Assembly (NCBI GenBank): GCA_008632985.1
Contig: QPGO01000034.1
Span: forward strand, 62,001-126,000
Reading direction: 5' to 3'
Length of the DNA: 64,000 nt
DNA from: Psammoneis japonica
Taxonomy: Eukaryota
Both the position numbers and the translations under genes were made by a program. Under the pieces are notes generated by a model. That model searched no databases, was not told the origin of the DNA, and was given only the letters and a program-made list of their open reading frames with translations. Shown in pieces: positions 5,799-53,540 of this stretch (position 1 is its first letter; each line of letters starts with the position of its first letter).

Positions 5799-7253
5799 AT
5801 GACAATCCATACATACGCTCCAAAATTCGTCTTACAATCACCCTTCTTCCTCATGAAAGACAAAGTCGGAAAACCTGTGGCTATTCCTAAGCCAATGCCG
5901 CATAAACAGAGGCGCCGGTGGTGCTTGCTTGTTGCAGTTGTGTCAGTGGCGGCTTTTTTGGCGGTCATAACTGTTGTGGCCTACGGTCTCAAAACATACG
6001 TTGATGAACATCATCGATCTCCTGAATCCAATGGGCAGGACGTCGGTGATCCTGAGGTTGATGAAACTGCCGCCCCTTCCTCGTTTCCATCCCGCCCAAT
6101 ACCTACTCTCTCCCCAACGTTGGATCGGAGCGTTTCGACGCCAAATACGCCACCGGCTTTAACTACGCCGCCAACGTTTCACCCCCCTTCTACTCAATCA
6201 CCATCTGCCTTGCCCGAGCATTCATCACCACCTTCAGCAGGAGCTTTCTCCACCAACATACCATCAACTTTTCAGCCGTCCCAACTACTACCTACTCTCC
6301 CACCAACGTTGGATCAGAGCGTTTTGACGCCAACTGCGCCACCAACGTTAAATCCCACGTCTACACAATCACCATCTCTTCTGTCTCAACAATCCTTGGC
6401 ACCGTCAGGGATAGCTTCTTCCACCAGCTTGCCGTCGGCTTTTCAATCTCAAACAACCTTTTATGCTGTTGCTGACGTTCCATATAACAAGAACCAAGCT
6501 ATAAATCTTCGGAAGCAAATGACAACCTTGAAAAGTGATGGTGATTTTTTAGTCCATCTTGGGGATATCAAGAAGAAGTATGTCCCTTGTACAAAAGAGC
6601 AATTCGAAAGTAGTGCCTCAATAATGCTAGAGTCGCCTGCTCCTGTGTTTCTCACTGTTGGAGATAACGAGTATAGCGATTGCGAAGACCCAGAAGAGGC
6701 ATTGGAAGTCTGGCGACAAGTTTTCAGTGATTTTGACAAGAAGTGGAACCATACCATTAATGTAACGAGACAGGAGGGTCGACCCGAAAACTTTTCATTT
6801 GTGCTCCGGAAGACATTATTTGTCGGCCTCAACATTGTCGGTGGTCGAGTGCACAATGCCACAGAGTGGAGTGAAAGACTTACCGAACAACTACGTTGGT
6901 GTGTCAATCTTCTTGACGAGCATACCAGAGGAGAGTCCCCTGACGCCAACGGTGTCGTCATATTTGGTCACGCAAACCCTTCTGATAACCACAATCCGTT
7001 CTTTGAGCCATTGAACGACTATATCGAGAACGTGACAAAACATCGCATCCCAATGCTCTACATGGGTGGCGACGTTCACAGATGGCTTTATGAGCCGAAC
7101 TTCTTCGATCAAGAAAGCTTTCTGCGAATTAGATTGTCTGGGGGGACCGTTGACGAGCCGCTCAGAATGAACGTGGACCCGACAGCCTTTAGCAAGCCCG
7201 AAGAGGCATTCCAGTTTACTCGTACGAAGAACCGGAATGACAAAGGAAAATAA
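5799..7253 (+). CDS. Type II membrane calcineurin-like metallophosphoesterase with Pro/Ser/Thr-rich stalk (start uncertain)
   Basis: TM helix, then ADVPY, HLGD, GDNE, FGH and GDVH metal-binding motifs. Confidence 0.8.
   Translation: MTIHTYAPKFVLQSPFFLMKDKVGKPVAIPKPMPHKQRRRWCLLVAVVSVAAFLAVITVVAYGLKTYVDEHHRSPESNGQDVGDPEVDETAAPSSFPSRPIPTLSPTLDRSVSTPNTPPALTTPPTFHPPSTQSPSALPEHSSPPSAGAFSTNIPSTFQPSQLLPTLPPTLDQSVLTPTAPPTLNPTSTQSPSLLSQQSLAPSGIASSTSLPSAFQSQTTFYAVADVPYNKNQAINLRKQMTTLKSDGDFLVHLGDIKKKYVPCTKEQFESSASIMLESPAPVFLTVGDNEYSDCEDPEEALEVWRQVFSDFDKKWNHTINVTRQEGRPENFSFVLRKTLFVGLNIVGGRVHNATEWSERLTEQLRWCVNLLDEHTRGESPDANGVVIFGHANPSDNHNPFFEPLNDYIENVTKHRIPMLYMGGDVHRWLYEPNFFDQESFLRIRLSGGTVDEPLRMNVDPTAFSKPEEAFQFTRTKNRNDKGK
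6087..6450 (+). repeat. Two diverged ~180-bp in-frame tandem copies encoding the stalk
   Basis: PTLSPTLDRSVSTP..STQSPS..STFQ versus PTLPPTLDQSVLTP..STQSPS..SAFQ. Confidence 0.75.
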
Positions 7254-21659: not shown

Positions 21660-23993
21660 ATGAGCACAGAGTCGTTGGAGGAGGAGTTATCAATTCCAGG
21701 AGAAGCTTCTCTAGTGCCAGAAAAGCCTGGTCATGAATTCCATCTTACAATGAGTGGAGGTGGAGAGGTGGTCGTAGGTTTGACGACGTCTCTACGTGTT
21801 GCGCAAGAAGAAAAGCCGAGGTGTCTGGTGGTGGGACGTCAGGCTAGCACCGCCGACCTTCGTATTCAGCACAAAAGCATCAGTCGTCGTCATGCAGCCC
21901 TCTACTATTATAAAGATCAATTCACCTTGCAGGACTTGGGAGGTAAACACGGTGTATGCGTGAACGGAAATCGCGTCGCGTCAAATTCATCGGTTGTTCT
22001 CGGCGATGGCGATGTTATTCAATTTGGAAATGTGAGAGATAACCTATTTTCGGTAAAGGCAGCCGCACCGGAACCAATCAAAGAGACAAGCAAGACTGAA
22101 GAATCCGATAATGAATCAGAAACAATACAAGCACAGGCACAACAGCCCGAACCGGGAGCAGGGTTGACTGGTCGAGCAAAGAGGGAAGCTGAAATTCAAG
22201 CCGTGATGGCGTCTTTTGATCAAAAGCCCATTTATCAAAAATACAACCCCACAACAGACCAATCCAGCGATGCATTATTAGTGGATTCGAAGGCCAATGT
22301 GAAATCAAGATCCCGGGAAAAGTCAGCAACAGCAGAAAGAAACTTTGGGCTCCCCGTTTCCGAGACTTTCTCGGTGTCCTACCAAGGCGACGCGAAACGC
22401 TGTATTGTTTCAGGTCTTGCTGTTGATACGGCAGGGTCGAGGTTTATTGCTGGTGGAACTGATATGGTCTTGCGGTTTTATGACTTTGCTGGCTTGGACA
22501 GCCATCGAATGGATCCTTTCAAATCGGTCGTTGTAGAGGATGGCCATGTTATCGTGGATGTGTGCTATAGCAACACGGGTGATCGCATCTTGGTGGGGAC
22601 TGGAAGTGTCCAGCCCAAAGTCTTGGATAGAGATGGGCATGAAATGTAAGTATCGCGTATTCATGGGTTATCCGTGTCTTTTGACTTTTTGATTCTAACA
22701 TGCAACCTTGATCTCGCCTGCAGAATACAGTTTGTTCGGGGCGACATGTATGTCACAGACCCTGCTCGAACCTCCGGACACACGGCTGCCGTGACGGGCG
22801 TATCTTGGCATCCGTTGGAACGTGATATTGTGCTAACAAGCAGCATTGATGGTTCTGCTCGAACTTGGAATTTGAACGGCAAGACTCAATTTCAAAAGCT
22901 AGTTTGTGATAAGGTGTATCGATCGAAGAACCAACGCGGTCAACGGGTTGCGGCAACTTCTGTAGCTTTTGCTCCTGGTGGAAGAGAATTGGCCTTTGGG
23001 ACGGCTTGTGGAAGTATTCAGATATGGAGCGCATTGAAGGTTGGAGCTAGGCCGGAACGGGTAGTCTTCGATGCGCATGGTAACAACAAAGCCATTCATT
23101 CGCTTGTATACAATGCAGACGGAACGCGTTTGGCGAGCCGCAGCATGGGTGACGACACAGTCAAGGTGTGGGAGGTTAGGAAACTGAGTAAGTCCGCGTC
23201 TCCCCTTGTTACCTGCACGGGGCTTCCGTGTGAATACGAGCACTGCAATTCAGCTTTCAGTCCTGATGGTCGAGTCATCTGTGCGGGATCTGCAGAACTT
23301 GTCAAGAAACCCAGTGGACAGCGCCAAGAGGTGGGAAAACTAAAGTTTTACCGCGTTCCGCAAAAACAAGAAGACACGACAATGGAAGATTCGTCGGGGT
23401 CGGATCCCTTTCTGGAGCTTGACGTGGGAGTCGGTGTTGTGGTTGTGCGATGGCATGCAAAGCTAAACCAGATTTTTGCTGGTTGCACCGACGGAAGTGT
23501 CACAGTTTACTTTGACCGAGATAGAAGTAGCAAGGGCGCGCTTCTTTCTGCTGCAAAGAGTAGCAGGCCGGTGGATGAGTTGTCCCGCCTTCTTGCGTCA
23601 CGCGCTCCAACGGGATCCGCTGGTGTCAGAGGCGAAATTCTGACTCCCAATGCTCTACCAATGTTTCGTGACAAAGAGGGAGACAAAAAGCGAAAAAGAA
23701 AAGACCGTGAGGATCCAACTAAAAGTCACCAACCAGAACCGCCATCTGCTGGAATTAAAACCGGGGGTCAAAGTAGCGTTCAGATCAATTTCACGCAGTT
23801 CGTTTCCAAATCCATTGTTCGAAACAAGAACATCGCTGGAAAGGACCCACGCGAGGAATTGTTCAAGTATTCCGATGGCAAGACCTACGCAAGTCAAGCT
23901 TACGAGGGTGACAAAGAGAGGGTTCTAGCGGACACAACAGTAGAGCAAGAGGAGGAAGAAATCCGAGCCAAGAAGTCGAAAGACAACAACTAA
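21660..23993 (+). CDS. FHA domain fused to WDR70/GAD-1-like WD40 protein; intron ~22646-22723
   Basis: FHA (VVGR..SISRRHA..DLGGKHGVCVNG); WDR70-type FYDFAGLD, RGDMYVTDPARTSGH, ILTPNALPMFRD, DPREELFKY. Confidence 0.85.
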
Positions 23994-24028: not shown

Positions 24029-27000
24029 TTATACATCGATCCCCAGTTCGACGTCATGCGTTTCGTCTCCAGCCGACGATGCTGCAGCTGCAGCAAGCGC
24101 GGAAGCTGTGGCAATGGTCTCTTCAGCATCTGCGATTGAGATATCCGCCCCGGTATCAGTACCAGGGGCCTCCCAGATAAAGCCCAACGAGTCAAGCTCG
24201 GCTACCCTCTCCGGATCAAGCTGGGAAGTCCTTCCTTCTTTCATTATCTGGTACTGATTGCGCTGCTGAGCAACCCACGAAGACAAGCGAGGATTCTCGG
24301 GGTACACCTCAGGAATATTCAAGTCTCCGTGACTATTCTTGTATTCTAGAAGCTCGCTAACTCGGGTCCTCCAAACATGGTCGGCAAACCCGCGAAGAGC
24401 CCAAACAAAGCCCAGTTCCTCAAGCTGACGGATGCGGTCTTCGCTCATCGCGGAGGACTGGGTTAGGGTGGGGTCTTGTTCTTTTGCCTTCATGAAGAGT
24501 CGGTATTGGGTTCTCTGCGTTCCGACCTTCATATTGAGAATACAACAACCAAAAACAAATTTAGCGGGGTGTAAAAAATCAGGCAGCGTATGGAAAGCCT
24601 ACAGCAATAACAGTCTTACCCAAACACCCAGCTCTGGATTCGGCGGATACCTGCAATTGAAAAAGACCAATCAAGCGAATTAGATTGATATAAGTGAAAA
24701 ATAGCAATAATTGGATTCGGCAAGTCGGCAAGTACCTCGAAGGCACCAAGCAGTCGCCGTGTTCCTCCTTGTACGCCTTGAGCTCAGCAAGTCGTTGGTT
24801 CCAACTTTCTCCCAAGCTGTCGCGGGAGCGTATGGTCCAAGTGAACCCGAGCTCGTTCAAAAGCCTGATGCGCTCCTCCGTCAAAGGGGCAGACCGTTGT
24901 TTCTTCGATTCATCCGTCGAGTTCATCAGCTTGTACTGCTGGCGTTGGGCTGACACCCAAATTCCGAGACGTCTATTGGCACTGTAGCGCGCTGGTACAT
25001 TACAATGTCCATGAACTCGCTTGTATTCGATGAGCTCGTTGTAATGCTTTTGCCAATCATCACGGAGTGACCACACGAACCCTAAGCCTTCGAGTCTGCG
25101 AATACGCTCATCGGTGAGGCGACCCACCACTGGTTTCGGGGTGGTGTTCGCCGCTTCGTCCCCCTCCTGGGTTTCGCCTTCTGGAGCAGGGCCAGTGTAA
25201 TCGATTCCCATTTTGGCTAAGTGTTTCTTCATCTTCTTATACTGCACGCGTTGTGTATCGACCTGAGAATAAAAACCAGAAAATGTAAGAGACACTGCAA
25301 CAAAACAATAGGGCAACGCATAGAGAGCATGCAGAAACAATCGTCTTACCCATGTGCCGAGCTTCTGGTCTTCTTTGCATCGCTTTGGTACAAGCACATT
25401 CCCGTGCCGTTCCCTATAATCGCACAAGCGTTGAAACATTGCATCCCACTGCTCATCGTAGCTGTTTCTTGTGATCCTACTTCGCTCGTTGCTCTTCTCC
25501 GTTTCACGCGCAGACCAAACAAATCCGGCGTCTGTAAGCTTCTTCCTTCGTTCTTCGGTCAAACGGAAGGAGGTTTCTTCCTCACCCTTAGCTTCATCGT
25601 CGCCGCCGTCCCCAGACTCGGCTGCGCTGTCCTTCTTGGTGCCAGCGAGGAACTTTCGATACTGAATACGTTGGGTATGGACCCACGTACCCAGCTGGGG
25701 CAGAATCAACAACTTAAGATCAATATATGTATGGGCATCATGTGGCAGTCTCTCCATGCCACGTCTTAACTTACCTTGGGGTCAGCTGCATGTCTCTTTG
25801 GGACCATCGTATGCCCATTTTGCTGTTTGAACTCGAGCTAAAAGAAATAAGAAATAAGATGGGCCAGACGCGATAAAGCAGACTTGTATTCGTGCGTTCG
25901 AAAGCCATTCTTACCAATCGCTCGTACATTGCATCCCATTGTCGGTCGTAGTAACGTTTCATTTTGTGTTTGACTTTCCATTCAAAACCGATAGATTCAA
26001 GTCGACGCAACCTTTCTTCGGTGAGACGCGGGTTTGTGGCTCTCGCGGACTTGGTGGCAACCTCACCACTTGTGGTGTCGCCCGCTTTGCTTTCCCCTTT
26101 CTCGTTTGCGTTCGCCCTCTGGAGTTTGGTATACTCATACCTCTGCGTCTCCACCCACTGTGTTGACGAGGACCGAAAGGGACATGTTTTTAGCTTAAGC
26201 AGCATGACTTGTTGTTCAATGTGTAGTCTACTGTAATCATGACTTACCTTGCCTAGCTTGACATCCTCCTGTGTTGACGAGGACCAAAAGGAACATGTTT
26301 TTGGCTTTAGCAGCACGACTTGTTGTTCAATGTGTAGCCTACTGAAATCGTGACTTACCTCGTAACGAGACGGAACCAAACAATCGCCATTTGTCTCTTT
26401 GTATTTTACCAGTTTATCGAACATTTCGTCCCAGTGGTCTGAAACTCTCTTGGTGCGAAGCGACCAGACAAAACCAATCTCGTCAAGCTTCGCCTTGCGC
26501 TCTTCTGAGAGTCTTTTGGTCGATTTTCCGGGTGTGATTGTCCCTGACACCTCGGATTCTGTTCCCAACAAGTCAGCTTGATCCATCGTCGGAGCAGCGA
26601 CGTGATGCTCAGTGGAAGCCGTGACTTGATCAACCACCTCCATGGTTGCAGCAACAACCTCGGCAACATCCTCTTCGGTTGCCGTCTCAGCCGGTTCGGT
26701 GCCCTTGTCGAGCTCCATCGCCCATTCTTCTGGAGTCTTGCCTTCAATTGCAGTGGTTGGGGGCAACGCGGCGGCTGCGTTCGTCACAGTTTGGCTATCA
26801 TGTCCCTTCTTGAAATCTCTATTGTTGAGAACTCTTTGGGTTTCCACCCAAGTCGACAATTTGGGATCAGGTTCGTACTTCTTAGGCACAATGCAGTGGC
26901 CGTGTTGGTCCCTGAACTGTTTCAGCCTTTCGTACATCTCATTCCACTGAACGTCATTGAGACGCTGGCGAGCGGCAGCTCGGTCCGTTGGGTTAGTAGA

Positions 27001-27648
27001 TGGCTTTTTCTTGGCAACTGCAGGGGCTTGCTTTGGCTTTCGAACGTTCTTGGCTGACCAGGCGAAACCGATGGATTCCAATTTCTGTAGACGGGTGGCA
27101 TTAAGACGCTTGCTGGGAGTCACGAGACTCGCCTCGTCCGAGTCTGCAGCGCTCTTCTGTAGCTTCTTGTACTGCACCCTCTGTGTTTCCACCTATAAAC
27201 AGAGAATGCAAACAACAACTACTGAGTTAGAGTGTGCAAAGAAATCACGTACTGATAGAGAGCATAGAGAAGAGAGCATCCGTACCCATGTGCCAAGTTG
27301 AGGGTTAGCAGCATACCGTTTCGGGACCAAGCAGTCGCCATGCTCCTGTTTGTAGGCCTGAAGCTTCTCGAACATGGCATCCCACTGCTCGTTGTTGAGC
27401 TTCTTCGGTGGGGGGGCACTCCGAACTCTACGTGACGTGCGCTGACGTTTCTTAGCACCCCCTTCTTCTTCTCCCTCGCCATCATCGAATTCTTCCATGT
27501 CTTCGTGACCAAAGGCAATAGCTTCGTCCGCACTCGGCTTACGATCATCTAATTCAACGACCTCCTGCACGAACTCCGGATGCATGGCTGAGTCGTCGAG
27601 GACGATAGGATCTGCTGCGACGTCATGTTCATGATGCTCATCGTCCAT
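24029..27648 (-). CDS. Protein made of multiple helicase-associated (HA) domains, about 8 introns
   Basis: Repeated W..M..KL..YK..HG.C.VP.RY...LG.WV.TQR..Y...L..ER...L..LGF.W units. Confidence 0.88.
26158..26358 (-). repeat. Two near-identical 90-nt spliceosomal introns (26158-26247, 26269-26358) around a 21-nt exon
   Basis: Both read GTAAGTCA...CAACACAG on the - strand; 8 mismatches in 90 nt by manual alignment. Confidence 0.9.
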
Positions 27649-51876: not shown

Positions 51877-53205
51877 GGGATGAATGATGGGATCAATCAA
51901 TCAATTTTCTCTTCTGGGAAGGACGGGGAAGCAAGCTGCCATTTTGCCACTGCTTTGCACACAAAAAAAGCGGCCAGTGGAGGGGGTGAGCATGTGGTGT
52001 GCACAGTGCTGCAATTGATGACCTGGTCAAAAACCTGGAATTTCAACTGAGCAACTTCTTCCTGCAGAGCTGCTGTCCCCAATTGTCCCCTCCTGTGCTG
52101 ACATTGAGTGAACTCCACCAAGCAACTCTGCACAGCAGCTTCCTCTCAGGAGCGGCCAAAAAAAACGCAAAATGATGCCAAAGAAAGTTGTCCCCACACT
52201 CAACATTTCAGCACTTTCCAAAAAACTTCTGCACACACACCCTGCATGATTGGCAAAAGAAAGAAGACAAGGGAAACAATCTGTGAGAAAAAGAGCCATG
52301 AGCCGCAACCACTTGGCTCACAGCCTGTGTGTGCGGTGCGTGGTCTTTTGTTCTCTTGTTGAGATGACATCACACACCAGGGGCACACATGAGCAGCAAA
52401 GTCCAGGGATTCCCAAGTGCAGAGCATCATCCAAGGCAAAGCTGCTGAACCAGACCAGATGAGGTGCACTCATCTTGCACTGCAGCAAACTTCTTCTGTG
52501 TGGGGCAAGCAACAACCACTCAGCTTGAACAACCCAACCCCAAAGAAGGTTTTGTTTAATGTTGGTTCACCACATCTGAAATTTGCATGCTTGCATTTTT
52601 TGGCTTTTGGCAAACATTGGATGTCACAACAATCTGCCAAAAAACATGACAAGAGTGCATGTCTCCAGCCTCAAAGGTGCACACATCATCACAAAAAGAA
52701 CAGTGTCACAGTTGCTGTTTGGCATTGTTCTCATGACACGTGGGTCAATGCTGACTTCTGCATGTGTGTCTGGTCCATGCACACAAACACTCCACACACA
52801 ATGTCAGCCACAATGCAGCACACCACTGTTGCTGCTCTGCAGCACCCTCTTTGCCTTTGCAGTTGCATGGAGCCATGTCCATTGTTTTCATTTGAAACCT
52901 GTCTCATTGTCATTGCAAGACAGCTGCAGCTCCACACAGTTGTTTTCATTGCAGACAACCCAATCTCTTTGCGTTTCATCATTTTTTGTACTTTTGTGCT
53001 GTCAATTTTGCACATTGTCATTCATGTGAGAGACACTGTGCATGTTGTTTTTTGGATGCTTTGCACATGTCATTTTTTGGTTGCTTTGCGCATGTTGTTT
53101 TTTGGTTGCTTTGATTGTTCATTCAAAATTTCTGCCAAACTCCTGTTTGCCCATTTGTTTCCAATGAGAGTTGGTGCCATCTTGAACAACAACTTGTTTG
53201 TTGAT

Positions 53206-53540
53206 TGCTGTGGTGCTTGACATTTTGCACTTGTCATCTGGAGCTGCCTTCTTAGAGGCTGCCTCTGTTCATCCATTTCAAACTTGCACAGCTGATGTTA
53301 GCCCCCTCTGTGGAGTGCATTTGTCAGACAAACACAAGCATGCAATCAATGCACTGGAGGATGCATTCCTGTTTTGATTTGTTTGCTGTGATGCTCAGTG
53401 TTTTGTGTTTGTCATCTGGAGCTGCCTCAGAGGATTCCTCCTTTTTGTCCATTTCAATTTTGCAGCAGCTGGCATTGGATCCCTCTTTGGAGTGCATTTG
53501 TCACACAAACACAAGTGCACAATTAGCGCAGCTGCAATGG
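53206..53540. repeat. Diverged tandem duplication, period ~178 bp
   Basis: tgctgtg.tgct..ttgtcatctggagctgcct..tccatttcaa..ggagtgcatttgtca.acaaacacaag starting at ~53206 and ~53384. Confidence 0.85.

Follow-up and report, generated by a model that had tools for sequence, protein, structure and literature searches.

The origin of new spliceosomal introns is still debated. Few cases are available in which the source and the copy are both visible, the copy is exact to its splice sites and splicing is documented, and a 2012 review lists fourteen unambiguous events (PMC3443670). It has been described that introns of fungi can arise by same-gene duplication (SGD), with 82 SGD introns reported from 24 species, half of them without duplicated exons (Collemare et al. 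2013, PMC3609843). That report presents SGD introns as proposed transpositions within the same transcript and refers to three cases in C. elegans (PMC3609843). The fourteen events of the 2012 review occur in Mycosphaerella and Oikopleura and are assigned to intron transposition by reverse splicing (Yenerall & Zhou 2012, PMC3443670, Table 1), a mechanism that has never been demonstrated in vivo. Introners/ILEs are described from Micromonas, fungi, dinoflagellates and others, with copy numbers from tens to thousands, spread over unrelated genes; the ILEs of fungi are given as approximately twice the length of regular introns with a stable fold, and transposon-type introners as possessing inverted ends or target duplications (PMC3609843, PMC12130899). 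Tandem genomic duplication of an AGGT-containing segment is described as a further route, the new intron then consisting of duplicated exon sequence (PMC3443670). In a literature search with partial coverage of the journals, no description of same-gene intron duplication from a diatom came up. The pair of neighbouring introns described here (A and B) is a clean, RNA-supported and polarised diatom case of this known but rarely documented kind of intron gain. Its polarity is usable, with one intron position common to other diatoms and the other unique, and the locus illustrates how a 21-nt micro-exon can arise without protein change.

Both introns belong to a gene at 24029..27648 on the minus strand of the window, which is the whole 64-kb stretch of Psammoneis japonica DNA that was analysed. 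The gene consists of nine exons and eight introns and encodes a protein of 974 aa with repeated HA (helicase-associated) domains (PF03457). Its spliced model is open over 2925 nt, and Pfam HA matches were obtained on two frames (E = 3e-34 and 2e-24; 117.4 and 86.2 bits, gathering cut-off 28.4). Collinear orthologues of the protein occur in many diatoms, the best local BLASTP matches having 38-45% identity and orthologues being approximately 50-66% identical over aligned columns; the best named relatives are from Amphora coffeiformis, Mayamaea pseudoterrestris and Seminavis robusta (25-38% local identity), and no close relative was found in the databases searched. The neighbouring open frame on the plus strand (22650-23993, 447 aa) encodes a WD40 beta-propeller protein with Pfam matches to WD40 and related propeller families. 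Two sets of direct repeats located elsewhere in the window, at 6087-6445 and 53201-53530 (spacing 171-189 nt, 70-80% identity), probably represent tandem units, either of coding or of repeat sequence.

Intron A (26269..26358, minus strand) and intron B (26158..26247, minus strand) are each 90 nt long and in phase 0. Intron A follows codon 399 (SRYE/E) and intron B follows codon 406 (LGK/W), with a 21-nt micro-exon encoding EDVKLGK (26248..26268, minus strand) sitting between them. In gene sense the order is TCT CGT TAC GAG, intron A, the 21-nt exon, intron B and TGG GTG GAG ACG CAG. Both introns start with GTAAGTCA (GTAAGT) and end with CAACACAG (CAG). They are identical at 82 of 90 positions in a gap-free alignment, so that the description of twin 90-nt introns of about 91% identity around a 21-nt micro-exon, made in the sequence-only reading, is borne out. 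In BLASTN within the window the two aligned over 90-92 nt at 91% identity (E = 9e-29 to 5e-33), and the copies lie head-to-tail, 111 nt apart. The repeat length of 92 nt given by the repeat search, against an intron length of 90 nt, is accounted for by an exonic AG that precedes each GT. The longest identical run shared by the two copies is below 31 nt. Two matches to the 42-nt pattern that they share were seen in 0 of 100 shuffles, and their alignment score of 74 was reached by none of 300 shuffles (shuffle mean 5.0). The likeness of A and B is far above chance expectation.

That the likeness runs from GT to AG without duplication of exon sequence, as had also been read from the letters, was confirmed: the exonic AG is all that is shared besides, and when the flanking exons are placed in register 7 of 30 upstream and 10 of 30 downstream bases match. 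Nor is exon sequence repeated in the 19-21 nt that separate and adjoin the copies. Removal of both introns restores one HA repeat (CLVPSRYE EDVKLGK WVETQRYE) with the spacing seen in orthologues, again as claimed, and EDVKLGK fits the orthologue consensus ExNxKLGK. Both introns are 3n in length and lack in-frame stops, and the earlier statement that they are phase 0, 3n and stop-free holds in the form of an open frame of 473 aa (25771..27192) that spans the two. Since A and B are copies of each other, this property counts as a single event and not as two. The eight differences between the copies would, in the read-through frame, amount to five replacement and three silent changes, a proportion that gives no sign of coding constraint.

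The remaining introns of the gene, all on the minus strand, differ from this pair. Exon 2 (26359..27192), which ends GDCLVPSRYE, is defined by the open frame and the gene model, with its 26358-26800 part present in a contig of sequencing run X2 (see below), and exon 4 (25915..26157), beginning WVETQRYEY, is defined by the same contig and the gene model. Intron 4 (25838..25914, 77 nt) is skipped in the X2 contig and is unrelated to A and B (pairwise alignment scores of 1 and 3); intron 5 (25695..25774, 80 nt) is likewise supported by the X2 contig and unrelated to the pair in sequence. Introns 1 (27285-27193), 6 (25349-25263), 7 (24735-24651, phase 2) and 8 (24619-24527) are predicted from their GT..AG ends and homology. 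A second micro-exon (24620..24650, 31 nt, YPPNPELGVW) is predicted in a later HA repeat, with introns 7 and 8 on either side; the positions of these two introns are empty in orthologous loci L001/2, L003/4, L008 and L011, which encode the peptide without interruption. At 90 nt, A and B lie within the lengths of the gene's other six introns (77-93 nt), and among the eight introns only A and B are closely alike. Introns 1, 6 and 8 all occupy the W/V junction of paralogous HA repeats and are approximately 65% alike, with alignment scores of 22, 24 and 15 (reached by 0, 0 and 3 of 300 shuffles) where the shuffles averaged 6.6-7.9. Their likeness equals that of their flanking exons and hints at older same-gene intron copying or at conversion between repeats.

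Splicing was assessed using three sequencing runs (X1, X2 and X3) of one sample and study, none of which is recorded as RNA, by comparing their Logan contigs with positions 25700-26800 of the window (1101 nt). A contig of X2 (5418 nt, depth 18) joins 25837 to 25915, 26157 to 26248 and 26267/8 to 26358/9, and the pieces skipped have CT..AC ends on the plus strand, equal to GT..AG on the gene strand. At 25775 this contig departs from the window sequence and resumes in its loose end with the exon ending at 25694, intron 5 having been removed. Four consecutive introns (A, B, 4 and 5) are therefore absent from it, and the micro-exon is present as a 20-21-nt piece between two joints. A contig of the genomic run X1 (18131 nt) has no differences from the window over 25700-26800 and retains all four introns; nothing in X3 matched this part of the window. 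Since X1 contains no joined form and X2 has no depth inside the introns, X2 (recorded as 'DNA?') is read as a transcriptome of the same sample, a reading that rests on the splice pattern itself. Introns A and B are ordinary U2-type spliceosomal introns which are spliced out of the mRNA.

These contigs bear on several points for which the sequence-only reading had named checks. RNA junctions were to be looked for, and A and B are skipped exactly in the X2 contig; transcripts keeping the two segments as coding repeats were looked for in X2 as well, and this is not the case, although contigs cannot reveal minor isoforms such as retention or micro-exon skipping. The interpretation of A and B as coding repeats was ruled out by their splicing in X2 together with the five replacement and three silent changes. 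A duplication introduced during assembly had been raised too: contigs of X1 hold both copies with all eight differences, X1 being possibly the source data of the assembly and so not independent of it.

Intron positions were compared among orthologues by scanning metagenome contigs with an orthologue alignment. The scan gave 15 loci, which reduce to 12 distinct ones (L001=L002, L003=L004, L010=L012). Eleven of the 12 are clearly genomic, as they contain frame-changing gaps elsewhere in the gene; L008 is intronless throughout and may be a transcript. Between the C of CLVPSR and the W of WVETQR the spacing is 45 nt in L001/2, L003/4, L005, L006, L007 and L008, which have no intron at either the A or the B site. 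Extra DNA of 109, 107, 103, 77 and 60 nt is present in L010/12, L011, L013, L014 and L015, respectively, in each case as a single GT..AG intron exactly at K/W, the B position. These introns share the position of intron B, while their sequence appears unrelated to it. In L009 the extra DNA amounts to 170 nt and consists of two introns located elsewhere, one in phase 2 in an R codon and one in phase 2 in an L codon, with a 21-nt exon between them. None of the 12 distinct loci consequently has an intron at the A position (E/E), and 5 of 12 have one at the B position (K/W). Self-BLAST of the 15 loci, with settings that recovered the A/B pair from the window, found no comparable twin introns, the matches being coding HA repeats or lying outside the gene.

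Database proteins agree with these loci. The site is covered by 41 of the 120 proteins listed, 33 with both motifs and eight with variant upstream motifs. Contiguity across the site was seen in 31 of the 33, with nine residues between CLVPSR and WVETQR, the same number as in the spliced host protein, and also in all eight. P0005 and P0006 have an in-frame insertion at the B position, with V first and Q last, and P0052 (outside the 41) begins inside a B-position intron. An insertion at the A position was found in none of the 41 proteins covering the site, most of which may derive from either genomic DNA or transcripts.

Maximum-likelihood analysis (379 columns, LG+G4) places the window sequence with P0013, P0010, L006 and P0004/8/9 (support 87). 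L006, a genomic locus within this group, is without introns A and B, and in the closest clade (L006, P0004, P0008 and P0009) the B position is empty. Holders of a B-position intron fall in three other lineages, the deep nodes being weak (33-78). The A position is new in, and unique to, the Psammoneis japonica lineage among known relatives. The B position is common to other diatoms; either it is ancestral and its intron was lost several times, or introns were gained there recurrently. As it is empty in the closest clade, intron B may itself have been gained in this lineage, which weakens the direction from B to A and leaves room for a third source. The possibility that both intron positions are ancient, named beforehand as a point against gain, does not apply, the A position being empty in 12 of 12 distinct loci. 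The refuting conditions of the sequence-only reading were each checked at least in part, and none was borne out.

Further intron arrangements were observed in this part of the gene. The two introns of L009 (1300-1540) surround a different 21-nt exon in the orthologous HA repeat. In L015 (240-610) introns occur after HG, at K/W and after TQR, and a 17-nt exon is left. When orthologues and paralogues are taken together, the SRY..LGKW/V segment has five intron positions within approximately 30 nt and is a possible hot spot.

It is considered likely that intron A is a lineage-specific and exact copy of its neighbour B, produced by non-segmental same-gene intron duplication or intron transposition. 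The direction of copying was probably from B to A, with A as the new copy and B as the source, because the A position is unique, while that of B occurs in other diatoms as well. In such an event the whole intron, from GT to AG alone, would have been copied to a proto-splice site (GAG/G) 21 nt upstream and in the same orientation, and no coding bases would have been gained or lost at the insertion. The earlier proposal of recent intron gain, by transposition or by conversion, can be upheld in its first form, given the A site that is empty in all 12 distinct loci, and is disfavoured in its second.

For the means of copying, a spliceosome-mediated route is leaned towards, on the basis that it fits the splice-site precision, the same strand and the close proximity of the two introns. 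Once excised, the intron would insert by reverse splicing at a nearby site, either in its own unspliced transcript or in transcribed DNA, and the insertion could then be fixed by reverse transcription and short-patch recombination. Reverse transcription would be expected to erase intron B, which is located 21 nt away, unless the template was unspliced. Copying at the level of DNA is a possible, less probable alternative, in which template switching or the repair of a break would make use of 2-3 nt of AG/AGG microhomology. A double template switch or filler-DNA repair could give the same product, the exact boundaries of which would need selection. The joints of the X2 contig share two and three bases (AG/AGG microhomology). 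The present data fit copying through either RNA or DNA.

The copies are separated by a Jukes-Cantor distance of 0.095 and differ by six transitions and two transversions; three of the eight differences are CpG to TpG/CpA changes, split between the copies. With a diatom mutation rate of 4.77e-10 per site per generation, as given in PMC12130899, the age of the copy is roughly estimated to be in the order of 1e8 generations, any conversion between A and B being ignored. The copying event is young in comparison with the split from known relatives, yet it is not fresh, with approximately 9% divergence. The word 'recent' in the sequence-only reading is consequently appropriate relative to that split and inappropriate in absolute terms.

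The rival explanation that fares best, although it is judged improbable, is that A and B are independent insertions of a dispersed introner-type element, neither being copied from the other. Introners have been reported in the diatom Thalassiosira oceanica (PMC12130899), and the B position being empty in the sister clade means that both introns could be new to the lineage. Against this, no third copy is present within the 64-kb window, and two insertions 21 nt apart with none elsewhere in 64 kb are unlikely for a dispersed family. A 21-mer common to A and B had 0 matches in the metagenome contigs. No inverted repeats were found in 26100-26420, so terminal inverted repeats are missing from both copies. 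The fold z-scores of A and B (+1.07 and -0.55) show them to be no stabler than shuffles and fall inside the range spanned by the gene's other introns, six in number, and Rfam analysis of 25600-26900 gave no match on either, with a chance-level match elsewhere (E = 0.88). The twins lack the features of introners: they have no inverted ends and no stable fold, are of the length of regular introns and have no further copy in the window.

A second rival holds that the A and B positions are both old and attributes the likeness of the two neighbouring introns to gene conversion. Short neighbouring repeats can homogenise and the B position is indeed common to other diatoms; this explanation is nevertheless given very little credence. 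The A site is empty in every relative examined (12 of 12 loci, with no insertion in the 41 proteins), and conversion needs prior homology, yet A and B have unrelated exon flanks and the likeness halts at the splice sites. Conversion is disfavoured because of this empty site and these flanks without homology. The least credible explanation, tandem segmental duplication of the intron with adjoining exon followed by divergence, or else an assembly artefact, agrees with copies lying head-to-tail at 111 nt and can be set aside, as the 19-21 nt of sequence that lie between the copies or next to them are unrepeated, the spliced protein is of orthologous length without duplicated residues, and the eight differences recur in Logan contigs of X1 with identical runs below 31 nt. 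Segmental duplication was rejected on the finding that no exon sequence is repeated (flank matches of 7/30 and 10/30).

Beyond the exact copying of intron B to the A site, it is tentatively suggested that diatoms have an active process of local intron copying onto nearby or look-alike proto-splice sites, which repeatedly makes micro-exons. At least two rounds could then have taken place in this gene (A from B, and the older W/V introns), with SRY...LGKW/V as the hot spot. If this is true, the twins would be a snapshot of spliceosome-mediated intron transposition beside the excision site.

Comparisons with the systems outlined at the beginning place the locus as follows. In common with tandem duplication of an AGGT-containing segment, as described in PMC3443670, the event is local and head-to-tail and leaves the coding sequence unaltered; it differs in that intron A is a copy of a pre-existing intron alone, without repeated exon sequence. 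Like the introners described in PMC3609843 and PMC12130899, A and B share recognisable sequence identity. Unlike them, the twins show no extra length, stable fold or inverted ends, and no further copy was found within the 64-kb window. As in the intron transpositions of the review by Yenerall & Zhou (PMC3443670), the new intron A is homologous to an existing intron, has its own splice signals and was inserted precisely. Transposition via full cDNA recombination predicts loss of the source intron, whereas intron B is kept here. The locus resembles the non-segmental SGD introns of fungi, as reported by Collemare et al. (PMC3609843), in that A and B are near-identical, belong to one gene (within the 64-kb window) and have unduplicated exon flanks; the length and fold stability of the pair are also those of regular introns, as in fungal SGD introns. 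It differs from the SGD cases of that report in its diatom host, in the location of the copy 21 nt from its source, which makes a micro-exon, and in the support available for both splicing and polarity.
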